Below are positions 15,670-37,599 of a stretch of DNA of 61,590 nucleotides, piece by piece. A model generated the notes under the pieces. It was given only the letters and a program-made list of their open reading frames with translations. It was not told the origin of the DNA and ran no database searches. Source of the stretch: Candidatus Micrarchaeota archaeon (GTDB lineage Archaea > Micrarchaeota > Micrarchaeia > Anstonellales > Bilamarchaeaceae); NCBI GenBank assembly GCA_030648615.1, contig JAUSHJ010000042.1, positions 1 through 61,590 on the forward strand, in the 5' to 3' direction. Numbering within the stretch: position 1 is the first letter of the stretch; every line of letters begins with the position of its first letter. The translations under genes and the position numbers were made by a program.

Positions 15670-15771
15670 GAGCCTATAGTCGAAACTATCTTTTATCCTA
15701 AAGATAGCGAAATTGGTTAAGACGTTGCTCTTACACAGCAAAGATTCGCAGTTCGATCCTGCGTGGGCTCA
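15670..15771 (+). tRNA. tRNA-Val(TAC) with a putative ~27-nt non-canonical intron in the D-loop region
   Basis: Acceptor gagccta/tgggctc (6 WC plus 1 GU). T-arm cgcag-TTCGATC-ctgcg. Anticodon stem ttgct/agcaa with loop cTTACac. The D-region is 37 nt and contains the perfect hairpin ctatctttt-atcc-taaagatag, so a ~27-nt intron is inferred rather than a tRNA with an impossible D-loop. Confidence 0.55.
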
Positions 15772-20567: not shown

Positions 20568-21143
20568 ATGCAAAAACCTGATTTTAATTTTCCTCCTATT
20601 TTTAAGAAATTAAAAAGAGGCGGACCTGCTATCGTATTACCTAAAGACAGCGGAGCTATTATTGCCTATGCTGGCATTAGCAAAGAGAGTTTAGTTATTG
20701 AAGCAGGCGCTGGCACAGGATTCCTTACTGTTGCTCTGGCTTCCGTGGCAAAGGAAGTGATAAGCTACGAAATGAAAAAGGAGTTTGCTGATTTGGCTTC
20801 TGCCAATGTAAGAGCTGTAGGACTAACTAACGTTACTATAAAAAACAAAGATGTCACACTTGGTATTGATGAGAAAGACGTTGATGTGGTAATGCTAGAT
20901 ATGCAACATGCAGATAAGGCAGTTAAAATTGCTTTTGACGTTCTGAAGAAAGATGGTTGTGTTGTTGGCTATTTACCTAATGTTGAACAGGCTAAAGAAT
21001 TCTATCTGGAGTGCCAAAAGCAATTCAAGAAAGTTTTCATGATTGAAACTATTGTCAGAGAATATGAAGTTAGAGATTTCGGTGTTCGTCCTGCACACTG
21101 GGGATTGACACATAGCGCATTTCTTGTTTTTGGAAGGAAATAG
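20568..21143 (+). CDS. trmI: tRNA (adenine-N1)-methyltransferase TrmI
   Basis: 'RGGPAIVLPKDSGAI', 'VIEAGAGTGFLT', 'VISYE', 'VRPAHWGLTHSAFLVFGR'. Confidence 0.65.
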   Translation: MQKPDFNFPPIFKKLKRGGPAIVLPKDSGAIIAYAGISKESLVIEAGAGTGFLTVALASVAKEVISYEMKKEFADLASANVRAVGLTNVTIKNKDVTLGIDEKDVDVVMLDMQHADKAVKIAFDVLKKDGCVVGYLPNVEQAKEFYLECQKQFKKVFMIETIVREYEVRDFGVRPAHWGLTHSAFLVFGRK

Positions 21144-21293: not shown

Positions 21294-21473
21294 GCAGGGG
21301 TGGCGGAGCGGTCAAACGCGGCAGACTCAAGATCTCATAAGTTCCTTACTCGAATGTGAGAAAGGAAATCTGTTGGCCTAGCGCCTACACAGGTTCAAAG
21401 ACCACCTTTCTTTTTCCAAAAGAAAGCTAGTCGCACCAAAGAAAAAGGTGGTATGAAAATCCTGTCCCCTGCA
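21294..21473 (+). tRNA. tRNA-Leu(CAA), type II, with two putative introns (canonical 37/38 and one in the T-loop)
   Basis: Acceptor gcagggg/cccctgc (7 WC). Anticodon stem gcaga only pairs with tctgt about 36 nt downstream; loop ctCAAg gives anticodon CAA. T-stem acagg pairs with cctgt only after removing ~60 nt that follow 'ttcaaa'. Long variable arm. Confidence 0.55.
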
Positions 21474-21547: not shown

Positions 21548-22267
21548 TCATTTTACTAACAGCCTAACTGAGGCTTCAAGAAATGCAGCGTTCACTTTGT
21601 CATAATCTAGTCCCTGACCAAATCTATGTACTGGCCAGTAAGTACCTTCTCTATCTTCTATCAACGCTTTTGCTAATGTAAGATTAGTTATTTCATCAGT
21701 TACTACTGCACCTAAAACACGGCAACCAAATGATCTGAAAAGTTCCTTGGGAATATATTTTGAATGCATTCTTGAATGATTGGGTTCATGCATTTGCTCA
21801 GCATAATCTGGATCATCTTTGAGTAATTCAAGATGACTTCTTTCTAATTCCAACAATACCATCCCAAGACCATCTGACGATTGGCCAGCTCCAGCTGCTT
21901 TTTCTAAGCTTCCGGGTGTATAATGAAATATGGTTTTTAAGGTTGTATTAACGTGTCTACGGATATCATTTACTTTTATCCTTTCATCCCATCTACTTTC
22001 GAAATCAAACAATCTTCCTGAAAGTAGGTATAGAAAGAACCCGGTATTTGTTGATTCTGAATGCATATACGGTGGGGGTACGTAATCTATACCTTCCGTA
22101 AATGCATTAGCAACTAAAAGTCGCCTTACCTCTGCTGCAGTTGTCGCATGGACTCCACATAACGGTCTAACTTTGCTAATCAAAGGCGTTGGAAGAATGG
22201 CTCTAATATCTCTTGGTGATCTAGCAAGATCTGTCTGTGTTAGCACTTTTATTTTGGGGGATACCAC
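21548..22267 (-). CDS. conserved hypothetical protein
   Basis: 239-aa ORF. No family recognised with confidence. Confidence 0.4.
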   Translation of the reverse strand: MVSPKIKVLTQTDLARSPRDIRAILPTPLISKVRPLCGVHATTAAEVRRLLVANAFTEGIDYVPPPYMHSESTNTGFFLYLLSGRLFDFESRWDERIKVNDIRRHVNTTLKTIFHYTPGSLEKAAGAGQSSDGLGMVLLELERSHLELLKDDPDYAEQMHEPNHSRMHSKYIPKELFRSFGCRVLGAVVTDEITNLTLAKALIEDREGTYWPVHRFGQGLDYDKVNAAFLEASVRLLVK

Positions 22268-23015: not shown

Positions 23016-23432
23016 ATGAAATCTATAACAGTAATTGCAGATGACAGAGTAGGTCTTTTAGCAGATATATCATACCTTCTTGGAAAAGCAAAAATAAACA
23101 TTGAATCGATTGGACTGGAAGTCGTTGCCGGCAAAGCAGTAATGTCTCTTACTTTGAAAGATCCTGAAAAAGCTAAGACTGTCCTAGAACATGCTGGATA
23201 TGAGGTCACTGAAACGAACATGATAGTAGTAAAACTAAATGACCAACCAGGAGAACTTGGAAAAATTACAAGTATGATGGCTCAGGAAAAAATAAATATT
23301 GAGAATATACATATGCTATCAAAAGATGGTAAAGCTACGATTATAGCTATTAAAGTGGATAAACCAAAAAGAGCATTAAAACTTCTAGAACCATACCTTG
23401 TAAATAGAGAAGAATTAACTGGTGTAAATTAA
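23016..23432 (+). CDS. tandem ACT-domain protein
   Basis: Two ~65-aa repeats with 'DRVGLLADIS' / 'DQPGELGKITS' ACT signatures. Confidence 0.65.
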   Translation: MKSITVIADDRVGLLADISYLLGKAKINIESIGLEVVAGKAVMSLTLKDPEKAKTVLEHAGYEVTETNMIVVKLNDQPGELGKITSMMAQEKINIENIHMLSKDGKATIIAIKVDKPKRALKLLEPYLVNREELTGVN

Positions 23433-24484
23433 TCCAACTCCAGTTCAATCTCTTTTTCTTTTTTATTTATTTTAGCATTAGGCAATTTATTCTCAAGATC
23501 ATTTATATTTGTTTTTTCAGCCATTGCTAGCAATGATTCTACTTTCTCGTAATTTGAATAAATAAAATCGCCTTTTGCCTTAAGTTCTTTTTCTTCCTCG
23601 TTCAGAGTAACCAAACGAGCTTCCTGCTCTTCTAACCTTTTTTGCAATTTATCCAGTTCAACATTACGCTCCTCTTTTGCATTTAGATAAAATAAATCTG
23701 CAACTTCGCTAAGTGTTTCAAATGACTTAGTTTCAAAATCAGAATATTTGGAGAATTTTATTAAACCATAGTCAACTATTTGGCTATCTTTGTAGAAACC
23801 TACTGGAGCAAGATGTTTTCTTATAATATCTAATTGAGAAGTTATAGACCCTAGTTCTGATTTTGTCACCGTATTACCAGGCTTCTTCTCTTCTATTTTA
23901 CAAATAGACAATATTTCCTTCGCGTATTCTTTTCCAAGTGGCATCTGAAGAAGTGCACTTATTATATATTTCTCAGATAATGCATCTTCTAGTTTTTCCT
24001 TAACGTTTGATTTTGGATAATTGTATTCAACACCACGTTTTATTTTTCTGTCTTTCCATTCCTCATCCTTAACTGCAAATAAGGTTTTTCCATCTCGCAC
24101 CAGTACAAGATTACCTTTGGCAAATCCTTCATAAACTAAAGTTCCTCCGTCAAACTCAAATGCAATTATCCTATCATTGTTTATCTGTTTTACTGATATT
24201 AGTTTACTGCCTTCTAATTCTTTTCTTAACCCTTGAACGAAACCGTCTCCTTCTTCACCTTCTTCCATGAATTTTGAGGCATTAATTCGCATGCCTAGAT
24301 CTATGGATAGAGAAATATCTCCAAGTTTTATTCTGTACCTGCCTTCGGCTATGAAGTATATCTTATTGAACCTTCTGCCTAGCAGATTATCAAGTTCTTT
24401 TAGTATGAACTGATATTCTATGTTTTCCATCGGTCTGCCCTGTGGGGCAGATCTGTCGACCCTTCGGTTCTCCATCGCACGCAT
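23429..24484 (-). CDS. NFACT-N domain protein (N-terminal half of a NEMF/RqcH/FbpA-type ribosome quality-control factor)
   Basis: 'FILKELDNLLGRRFNKIYFIAEGRYRIKL' with a coiled-coil C-terminus. The partner NFACT-R gene is at 36817-37599. Confidence 0.65.
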   Translation of the reverse strand: MRAMENRRVDRSAPQGRPMENIEYQFILKELDNLLGRRFNKIYFIAEGRYRIKLGDISLSIDLGMRINASKFMEEGEEGDGFVQGLRKELEGSKLISVKQINNDRIIAFEFDGGTLVYEGFAKGNLVLVRDGKTLFAVKDEEWKDRKIKRGVEYNYPKSNVKEKLEDALSEKYIISALLQMPLGKEYAKEILSICKIEEKKPGNTVTKSELGSITSQLDIIRKHLAPVGFYKDSQIVDYGLIKFSKYSDFETKSFETLSEVADLFYLNAKEERNVELDKLQKRLEEQEARLVTLNEEEKELKAKGDFIYSNYEKVESLLAMAEKTNINDLENKLPNAKINKKEKEIELELD

Positions 24485-29559: not shown

Positions 29560-30150
29560 AACGAGTAATTAAAAGCTTCTGAATACTAAGCATATATGGG
29601 CTAGATTGGGGCCAGGGGTCCCAGCACCGTACATCCCCTTTAGACGGGTCGAAGACCCGGGGCGTTATATAATTCTAAGATGCCTTCTGTTTTAAGCGTC
29701 GATGCTCTGCCTCATATGGCAGTCTTTACGCATCAACCGAGCCAGATCGAAAGAAGCAACTCTAAATGCATAAAACTGTGCTTGTGAGATACAGAGTGGA
29801 GCTGATGGCAGAAGCTCCTTCTTAGTGTTACTATGGCCAACCGGGATGCCCATTTTGAAACAAAATGGGCTGAATTTACTAACAAGTAAATCGGATGCCC
29901 ACTCTACTTATGATAAACTAAGGTTCGTGGACCTTTGACGTGTATTCACGTCAAAATTTGTCACGATTTTTTTGCCCTCGTGACAACCCTTCCTAGTCTT
30001 CAGTTTCGCTTATAGACGGAATTCCAGTCAGTTTGCCCTAAAGGCAAATCCCTCGAGCATAGCTCTCGGTCACTCCGCTATCGCTACGTGACAGCCAACA
30101 CGTATCTGTTCTTTCTTGTAAATCGTCAACTGTCGAAAAAAACTACATAA
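29560..30150. other. ORF-free, hairpin-rich ~600-bp region; candidate structured ncRNA or degraded gene
   Basis: No ORF of 60 aa or more on either strand. GC-rich core at 29595-29660 (ggggccaggggtccc..., cgggtc-gaa-gacccg). Downstream hairpins ttgacgtg-tattc-acgtcaaa, tttgcc-ctaaa-ggcaaa, and the 29-bp IR element. Confidence 0.25.
29958..29987. repeat. 29-bp inverted-repeat element, copy 2 (inverted relative to copy 1)
   Basis: tttgtcacga-tttttttgccc-tcgtgacaa, the exact reverse complement of 24568-24598. Confidence 0.55.
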
Positions 30151-36816: not shown

Positions 36817-37599
36817 ATGAACATTAAACTCAAAATAGGTAAAACCGTCCACGAGAACGCTGCACGTTACTACGAACAGGCAAAAGAAGCCAGGAAAAAG
36901 ATGGACGGGCTTAAGCAAGCAATAGAAGAAACAAAAAAGGAAATGATTAAATCAGAAAAGAAAGCTAAAGAAAATAAAAAACTAATAAAGACTAAAAAAG
37001 AAAAAAAATGGTTCGAAAAACTGCACTGGTTTTACACTTCAAAAGGAAAAATGGCTATAGGAGGAAGAAATGCACAGCAAAATGATCAGGTAGTTTCAAA
37101 ATACATGGAAGACAGAGACTTGTTTTTCCATGCTGATATCCAGGGAGCTACAGTGGTTATATTGAAGGATGGCATAGATGCAGAAGACAGTGAATTGTTA
37201 GAAACAGCACAGTTTGCAGCCAGCTTTAGCAATGCATGGAAAAACGGTAATGCATCTGTGGATGTCTATGCGGTAAAAAAGGATCAGCTTGCAAAACATA
37301 CAAGTGGCGGTTATATCCCAACAGGGGCTTTTGCCATAACTGGAGAAAGAAAATGGTTCAAGAAAATGAAGATGGCTCTAAGACTTGGTAGAAGCCCTAT
37401 GGTAGAGGGTGGAGGCATACTGATTGTACCTGAGAATTGTACTAAAAAGCTTGAAAATGAAGTTACACTTTTTCCTGCTGCTGCCGGAAAAGACAAGGGA
37501 GAGTTAACAAAAACTCTTGCGAAAAGATTTGCTGTACATCCTGATGAATTAATGGAAGTACTGCCTAATGGGAAAACTAAGATGGTGTACAAGGATTAA
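36817..37599 (+). CDS. NFACT-R (DUF814) domain protein, the C-terminal half of a NEMF/RqcH-type factor
   Basis: 'LHWFYTSKGKMAIGGRNAQQNDQVVSKYMEDRDLFFHADIQGATVVIL'. Confidence 0.65.
   Translation: MNIKLKIGKTVHENAARYYEQAKEARKKMDGLKQAIEETKKEMIKSEKKAKENKKLIKTKKEKKWFEKLHWFYTSKGKMAIGGRNAQQNDQVVSKYMEDRDLFFHADIQGATVVILKDGIDAEDSELLETAQFAASFSNAWKNGNASVDVYAVKKDQLAKHTSGGYIPTGAFAITGERKWFKKMKMALRLGRSPMVEGGGILIVPENCTKKLENEVTLFPAAAGKDKGELTKTLAKRFAVHPDELMEVLPNGKTKMVYKD

Follow-up and report, generated by a model that had tools for sequence, protein, structure and literature searches.

A tRNA-Leu(CAA) gene predicted to be interrupted by introns in both the anticodon loop and the T-loop on a micrarchaeal contig

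In Candidatus Micrarchaeum ARMAN-2, a member of the Micrarchaeota, 56% of the tRNA genes are disrupted (Fujishima et al. 2011, PMC3239211), and it was in this organism that the epsilon2 splicing endonuclease was first found (PMC3239211). Its pre-tRNA-Cys(GCA) carries a 13-nt intron at position 59/60 that is cleaved in vitro by the epsilon2 EndA, and its pre-tRNA-Pro(GGG) carries introns at both 53/54 and 59/60 (PMC3239211). Position 59/60 has been listed among the non-canonical intron sites (PMC4090602), and multi-intron tRNAs have been recorded in ARMAN-1 as well as in ARMAN-2 (PMC4033280); a two-intron layout of a tRNA gene is already documented in the Micrarchaeota lineage. For the Thermoproteales, the work of Sugahara 2008 and Fujishima 2010, as related in the relevant passages of PMC4090602 and PMC4033280, describes tRNA genes with up to three bulge-helix-bulge (BHB) introns each and 59/60 as a recurrent site, together with related introns at different positions, which were read as intron transposition. 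In eukaryotes, the canonical intron of tRNA-Leu(CAA) is required for m5C34 (PMC11408192). Meanwhile, a 2018 survey noted that the tRNA sets of DPANN archaea look incomplete, probably owing to hidden disrupted genes (PMC5829648).

The DNA analysed here is a 61.6-kb stretch (hereafter, the window) of ordinary archaeal chromosome with about 36% GC, a contig that also turns up in sequencing run SRR13727527; it has Pfam matches to GatD/GatE, XPD, TBP, L21e, Rpb4, Cdc48, eIF1A, eIF2-beta, RIO kinases, ArgRS, PGK and topoisomerase. ARAGORN with default settings reported zero tRNAs across the whole window. An interrupted tRNA-Leu(CAA) gene consisting of three exons and two introns lies at 21294-21473 on the + strand (180 nt; GCAGGGG...CCCCTGCA by direct reading), and CCA is not encoded in it. 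As the original prediction had proposed, the type-II fold was obtained only after two excisions: deletion of 21332-21367 and 21400-21459 left 84 nt that ARAGORN recognized as a class II tRNA-Leu(CAA). The intron of some 36 nt expected after position 37 was thus located at 21332-21367 (36 nt, canonical position 37/38) by excision and a BHB scan, and the one of some 60 nt expected in the T-loop at 21400-21459 (60 nt, position 59/60) by excision, minimum free energy (MFE) folding and the same scan. All parts being on the + strand, exon 1 (21294-21331, tRNA positions 1-37) contributes the 5' strand of the acceptor stem, the D-arm, the 5' strand of the anticodon stem and the loop through G37, with the anticodon CAA at 21328-21330; exon 2 (21368-21399, positions 38-59) contributes the 3' strand of the anticodon stem, the variable arm, the 5' strand of the T-stem and the T-loop residues UUCAAA; and exon 3 (21460-21473, positions 60-73) contributes U60, the 3' strands of the T-stem and the acceptor stem, and the discriminator A.

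In the ARAGORN fold of the 84-nt product, the acceptor stem is 7 bp long, the D-stem 3 bp and the anticodon stem, which closes the loop CUCAAGA, 5 bp; the T-stem is ACAGG/CCUGU and the T-loop UUCAAAU. The product shows the marks of a class II tRNA-Leu, namely a cloverleaf with a long variable arm, an anticodon of the NAR form and A73. In its uninterrupted state, on the other hand, the 180-nt gene went unreported by ARAGORN even when intron options (-i), wider ranges and a lowered threshold were applied, and by Rfam both at the gathering threshold and at E<=5. The window holds no uninterrupted copy of tRNA-Leu(CAA). For comparison, homologues were retrieved from species-representative genomes with a degenerate pattern of the D-arm plus anticodon loop, which gave 52 loci, mostly from genomes labelled Micrarchaeota, Woesearchaeota or Nanoarchaeia (DPANN); 50 Leu-tRNA loci were parsed, and L042, which runs off a contig end, was left out. 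Three intron-free orthologues (L043, L020 and L011), scoring 56-61 bits with Rfam and read as Leu(CAA) by ARAGORN, match the spliced product, which is 85% identical to the uninterrupted tRNA-Leu(CAA) of L043. Taken together with the junction motifs and homologues described below, 21294-21473 is very probably a genuine two-intron tRNA-Leu(CAA) gene that gives rise to a functional tRNA, both introns presumably being removed by EndA.

When the T-loop intron alone was deleted, ARAGORN returned another reading, tRNA-Ser(CGA) with an intron at 35/36 (21329-21364). These junctions were rejected: the cut sites fall outside any BHB geometry, the 3' cut lies inside a conserved helix, and the orthologues lacking an anticodon intron read CUCAAGAUC, that is, CAA. 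In addition, one homologue (L032) permits the 37/38 junction only, and the discriminator A73, which fits Leu under the established archaeal identity rules, also counts against Ser(CGA). The probability of the Ser(CGA) reading is therefore considered negligible, and the assignment to Leu(CAA) is retained in what follows.

The junctions were assessed with a BHB scanner in which each strand consists of a 4-nt helix segment followed by a 3-nt bulge on its 3' side, with the cut placed between bulge nucleotides 2 and 3. In an unbiased scan, the top-scoring cut pairs inside the gene were 21331/21367 and 21399/21459. Of the roughly 17 million cut pairs evaluated over the two strands of the window, only 21399/21459 combined 4/4 central pairs with an outer helix of at least 5 bp and an inner helix of at least 9 bp. 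Since weaker 4/4/4 BHB-like motifs are common by chance (about 139 per strand of the window), a BHB motif by itself was regarded as insufficient proof, and the evidence rests instead on the coincidence of the motifs with the tRNA-restoring junctions and on the homologues. The BHBs that the original prediction called for could be formed at both junctions, nearly strict in the T-loop and relaxed in the anticodon loop.

On the 5' side of the T-loop junction (21389-21409, +), the T-stem strand ACAGG (21389-21393) is followed by the central-helix strand UUCA (nt 54-57 of the tRNA; 21394-21397), the bulge AAG (21398-21400, cut after 21399) and the inner-helix (h') strand ACCACCUUU (21401-21409). The 3' side (21444-21465, +), supported in addition by covariation, comprises the h' strand AAAGGUGGU (21444-21452), an unpaired A (21453), the central-helix strand UGAA (21454-21457), the bulge AAU ending in U60 (21458-21460, cut after 21459) and the T-stem strand CCUGU (21461-21465). 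With a fully paired central helix (UUCA/UGAA, 4/4), a 5-bp outer helix, a 9-bp inner helix, AAG and AAU as bulges and a single additional unpaired A, the modelled junction is a nearly strict hBHBh' motif. It was the strongest BHB in the window, and folding of the 180-nt RNA without constraints reproduced it, with its long inner hairpin, in the MFE structure (z = -2.98).

The same architecture was found in related genes. In an alignment of 11 genes including that of the window, for which 15 nt of the 5' flank were joined to 16 nt of the 3' flank, the 10 other DPANN genes showed UUCR/YGRA with 3-nt bulges at the T-loop site, as does the window gene. Nucleotides 54-57 (UUCA or UUCG) pair with UGAA, UGGA, CGAA or CGGG, and the 3-nt bulge follows directly 3' of the intron-side strand as AA/U, AG/U and variants (the slash marking the cut). 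Pairing amounted to 99% of the cells for the junction as a whole and 100% for the central helix, in which 7 genes have A-U and 4 have G-C at the pair involving nt 57, a compensatory change. None of 500 shuffles reached this level of pairing and covariation, and slid controls attained at most 58%. The unpaired A immediately 5' of the 3' strand of the central helix was seen again in several of the T-loop-intron genes.

A T-loop insertion occupies the same place in 15 of the 52 loci, and the 59/60 intron of Leu(CAA) is common to many Micrarchaeia and to some genomes labelled Woesearchaeota or Nanoarchaeia. Given these loci and the 59/60 introns documented in ARMAN-2, the rare-looking T-loop intron is to be expected in this lineage; the rarity attributed to such introns in the original prediction thus holds across archaea overall, and not within the lineage. 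Three of the T-loop introns are short (12-13 nt in L038, L045 and L049), and the whole set forms a comparative series on how BHB introns persist, lengthen and move.

The closest exons belong to L018, from the Bilamarchaeaceae (class Micrarchaeia, order Anstonellales), and L030: the spliced exons are 99% identical to both, and the 5' exon is identical across L018, L030 and L047, while the introns diverge in length and sequence. In the comparison with L018 and L030, intron 1 ranges over 34-110 nt with 31-67% identity to that of the window, and intron 2 over 92-108 nt (60 nt in the window) with 45-54% identity. Furthermore, the gene order Rpp14-PurE-TrmI-tRNA-DUF424-ACT-NFACT_N is kept in L047 and L039, whose proteins are 40-65% identical to those of the window, and these two are accordingly orthologous loci in well-diverged genomes. 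The upstream regions of the orthologues are not conserved and revealed neither a shared promoter motif nor a clear TATA box. These comparisons bear on the view that the locus is a pseudogene in decay, once a tRNA-Leu gene and now broken by two insertions that are never removed, which would account for its rejection by the standard detectors and for the poor central helix at intron 1 described below. Exons conserved at 99% beside insertions free to diverge are, however, at odds with decay, as is the filling of both insertion sites in orthologues from genomes at 40-65% protein identity, and covariation in a junction helix is not expected of dead DNA. A pseudogene is accordingly very unlikely, and the locus is best regarded as a working gene.

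At the anticodon junction, the 5' side (21326-21332, +) consists of the central-helix strand CUCA (21326-21329) and the bulge AGA (21330-21332, cut after 21331), and is followed by the 5' strand of the inner helix, UCUCAUA (21333-21339, +), which forms 7 bp with 21355-21361. The 3' side (21355-21368, +), delineated by the BHB scan and the comparison of homologues, comprises the h' strand UGUGAGA (21355-21361), the central-helix strand AAGG (21362-21365) and the bulge AAA (21366-21368, cut after 21367). The geometry is exact, with outer and inner helices of 7 bp each, and only 2 of the 4 central pairs between AAGG and CUCA can form; on this model, the anticodon intron fits the relaxed BHB class. 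Because the strand CUCA is set by the anticodon, only the intron side of this central helix is free to vary, and the family consensus facing CUCA is UGRG-AA/A. Across 30 intron-bearing gene copies the central helix was paired at 4/4 in 12, 3/4 in 16 and 2/4 in 2, the window gene being among the last. Its weak central helix is, as far as the predicted pairing goes, offset by the longest h' of the set.

Whether intron 1 uses a two-bulge motif at all was weighed against splicing of the hBH/BHL type, in which structure is confined to the 3' half (anticodon stem, AAA bulge and helix) and the 5' site is part of a loop, or against ordered splicing, with one intron leaving before the other. The h' helix is missing in 4 of 13 close homologues, whereas all 13 have a hairpin over the 3' site, and the ARMAN-2 enzyme is able to cut hBH substrates (PMC3239211). 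For the window gene itself, the 7-bp h' is longer than expected from shuffled sequences (p<0.001), and the MFE structure of the isolated anticodon arm with intron 1 is the anticodon stem plus h', both of which speak against this mode. We consider splicing without the two-bulge motif, or in a set order, to be possible but the less probable course, and prefer the relaxed two-bulge BHB for this gene. In the full-length RNA, the cloverleaf bearing both BHBs is less stable than the global MFE structure by 7.3 kcal/mol.

The last 26 nt of the anticodon intron (21342-21367, +) form a 10-bp hairpin, UUCCUUACUC / 6-nt loop / GAGAAAGGAA, that ends at the 3' splice site. It was found in 13 close homologues whatever the length of the 5' tail (the window gene, L044, L018, L039, L032, L030, L034, L036, L047, L008, L024, L010 and L033); in 4 of the 13 the insertion is longer, and its 3' module was the part aligned. 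In this alignment 94.6% of the cells are paired and 6 of the 10 pairs show compensatory changes, a level of pairing and covariation matched by none of 500 shuffles, with slid controls at or below 65%. As the hairpin takes up both bulge nucleotides of the anticodon BHB as well as the 3' strand of its central helix, the two structures are mutually exclusive. Column 21 of the alignment is U in 9 of the 13 genes, and this residue is the partner of A35 in the BHB and frequently forms a mismatch in the hairpin, a pattern that, judged from the alignment, suggests selection on both states. A covarying hairpin of this kind would suggest that splicing is gated by a conformational switch. Alternatively, it could have a role in the precursor or in the excised intron, for example in an intron-dependent modification near C34, by analogy with eukaryotic tRNA-Leu(CAA), or as a stable circular intron RNA.

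The canonical 37/38 intron was present in 27 of 36 CAA genes versus 1 of 14 genes for other Leu isoacceptors (50 parsed loci, a sample that is not phylogenetically independent), a bias reminiscent of eukaryotic tRNA-Leu(CAA), whose intron is conserved and linked to modification. The two have in common the isoacceptor and a 37/38 intron that prolongs the anticodon stem, which is a resemblance only. A further parallel is offered by Haloferax and other Euryarchaeota, where the tRNA-Trp intron bears a box C/D sRNA; there too, a structured and conserved canonical intron resides in an archaeal tRNA. Unlike the tRNA-Trp intron, the two introns of the window show neither a D box (CUGA) nor a C box (RUGAUGA) on direct reading. 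GUGAUGA-like elements, and in some cases CUGA-like ones, occur in the anticodon introns of L013, L014, L028, L051 and L003, a putative resemblance to box C/D sRNA; the genomes concerned are labelled Woesearchaeota, Nanoarchaeia or 'Methanosarcinales', and the MAGs with the last label may be mislabelled bins, to judge by exons in common with Woesearchaeota genes.

Two of the homologues, L030 and L034, have a long anticodon insertion whose 5' module matches the T-loop intron of the same gene over about 50-65 nt, with about 80% identity in the L034 alignment and local alignment scores of 37 and 59 for the two genes, as against 14.6±2.2 for shuffles. By these alignments, one intron family occupies both 37/38 and 59/60 in the two genes, an indication that introns have been duplicated or have transposed in Micrarchaeota, and a pattern that mirrors the occurrence of related introns at different sites in Thermoproteales. 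If the sharing is indeed due to transposition, it would extend the Thermoproteales phenomenon to DPANN archaea. We hold only as a rather doubtful proposal the joint reading that the canonical Leu(CAA) intron of the Micrarchaeia clade is more than a passive spacer and, separately, that tRNA-intron transposition reaches DPANN. Introns 1 and 2 of the window are unrelated to each other (score 12 versus 11.4±2.0 for shuffles), and intron 2 has a relative in the T-loop intron of L047 (31 versus 14.1±2.0). The anticodon insertions of L030 and L034 look like two tandem introns with a common 5' site. Another micrarchaeotal gene, a tRNA-Leu(TAA) (L009), carries an insertion of about 40 nt in neither the anticodon loop nor the T-loop but the variable-arm region, which, from its sequence, would add one more non-canonical intron site to those of the lineage.

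For the maturation of the transcript, the following course is proposed. The region 21294-21473 would be transcribed as a 180-nt precursor, each intron would be cut by EndA at the two 3-nt bulges on either side of the 4-bp helix, and the exons would then be sealed by an RtcB-type ligase to give the 84-nt class II tRNA, to which CCA would be added afterward. Strict EndA enzymes (alpha4, alpha'2) need a 3-4-3 hBHBh', whereas enzymes of the (alpha-beta)2 and epsilon2 types also process relaxed motifs located outside the canonical position. The anticodon intron, being a relaxed BHB, would call for a broad-specificity EndA like that of Ca. Micrarchaeum ARMAN-2; enzymes able to cut relaxed or non-canonical BHBs include epsilon2, (alpha-beta)2 and loop-bearing alpha4 forms. 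The gene structure, the junction motifs, and their conservation and covariation in homologues are documented above, and we infer cleavage, ligation, the type of enzyme and the order of intron removal with the help of the literature. The Pfam scan of the 64 ORFs of the window detected no EndA (tRNA_int_endo) or RtcB gene, and two unannotated ORFs of the window had no match among the PDB sequences. Self-splicing is at variance with the data, the introns being 36 and 60 nt long with no Rfam intron family at E<=5; the ribozyme core of group I and II introns takes hundreds of nucleotides. A split or permuted tRNA gene was ruled out by the colinear arrangement of the three exons within 180 nt. Likewise, an integrated element at a tRNA att site was ruled out by the lack of the corresponding direct repeat, no second copy of the T-arm/tRNA 3' end being present in the window at up to 3 mismatches.

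Compared with the described systems, the locus is most like those of ARMAN-2, with which it shares the affiliation to Micrarchaeota, the T-loop site at 59/60, several introns per gene and a mixture of strict and relaxed BHBs; the 13-nt intron of the ARMAN-2 tRNA-Cys also resembles the short T-loop introns noted above. Unlike the ARMAN-2 genes, that of the window encodes a class II tRNA-Leu(CAA) and combines introns at 37/38 and 59/60, its 60-nt T-loop intron exceeds theirs in length and includes a complete inner helix, and its host apparently belongs to another order, the closest exons being those of Anstonellales/Bilamarchaeaceae. The Thermoproteales share the 59/60 site, but they are high-GC thermophiles of the TACK group with an (alpha-beta)2 EndA, unlike the window at about 36% GC. 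The known mechanism of splicing is left unchanged by these findings, the practical value of which lies mainly in annotation, with modest comparative interest in the hairpin and in intron mobility.

Apart from that of the Leu gene, the window contains a single T-arm plus acceptor, at 15670-15771 (+). This is a tRNA-Val(TAC) gene that, in keeping with the D-loop intron previously postulated for it, becomes a tRNA, as recognized by ARAGORN, upon excision of 27-29 nt from the D-loop. The junction is ambiguous between 15686-15712 (27 nt) and 15685-15713 (29 nt); the intron has an inner hairpin of 7-8 bp and a 3/4 central helix, giving a relaxed HBh' motif. The unspliced gene was missed by ARAGORN and gave a partial Rfam match of 27 bits, short of the threshold of 29. 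Since the Leu and the Val gene each need excision and there is no other T-arm/acceptor, both tRNA genes of the window are non-canonically interrupted. All T-loop-intron genes tested were likewise missed by both Rfam and ARAGORN, so that both tRNA genes of the 61.6-kb window and T-loop-intron orthologues in published MAGs are invisible to these programs. Unrecognized genes of this kind make reduced genomes seem more tRNA-deficient than they are.

Several features of the surroundings were also recorded. Directly upstream of the tRNA-Leu gene, 20568-21143 (+) encodes a homologue of the TrmI/GCD14 family (tRNA m1A58 methyltransferase); this adjacency is kept in L047, L039, L044 and L006, and the T-loop intron sits one nucleotide beyond A58, which may be a coincidence. 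Right downstream, 21548-22267 (-) is an ORF of 239 aa with no Pfam or PDB match. It is missing from the syntenic L047 and L039, where DUF424 closely follows the tRNA, and it may be a lineage-specific insertion beside the tRNA gene. The SRP RNA at 29596-29853 (+) scored best on the bacterial large-SRP model (75.9 bits) and not on the archaeal one, despite the archaeal nature of the window, and an Archaea_SRP match lies near the tRNA-Leu gene in L043 and L020. Finally, NFACT is apparently split into a gene for the N-terminal/middle domains at 23429-24484 (-) and an NFACT-R gene at 36817-37599 (+), about 12 kb apart.
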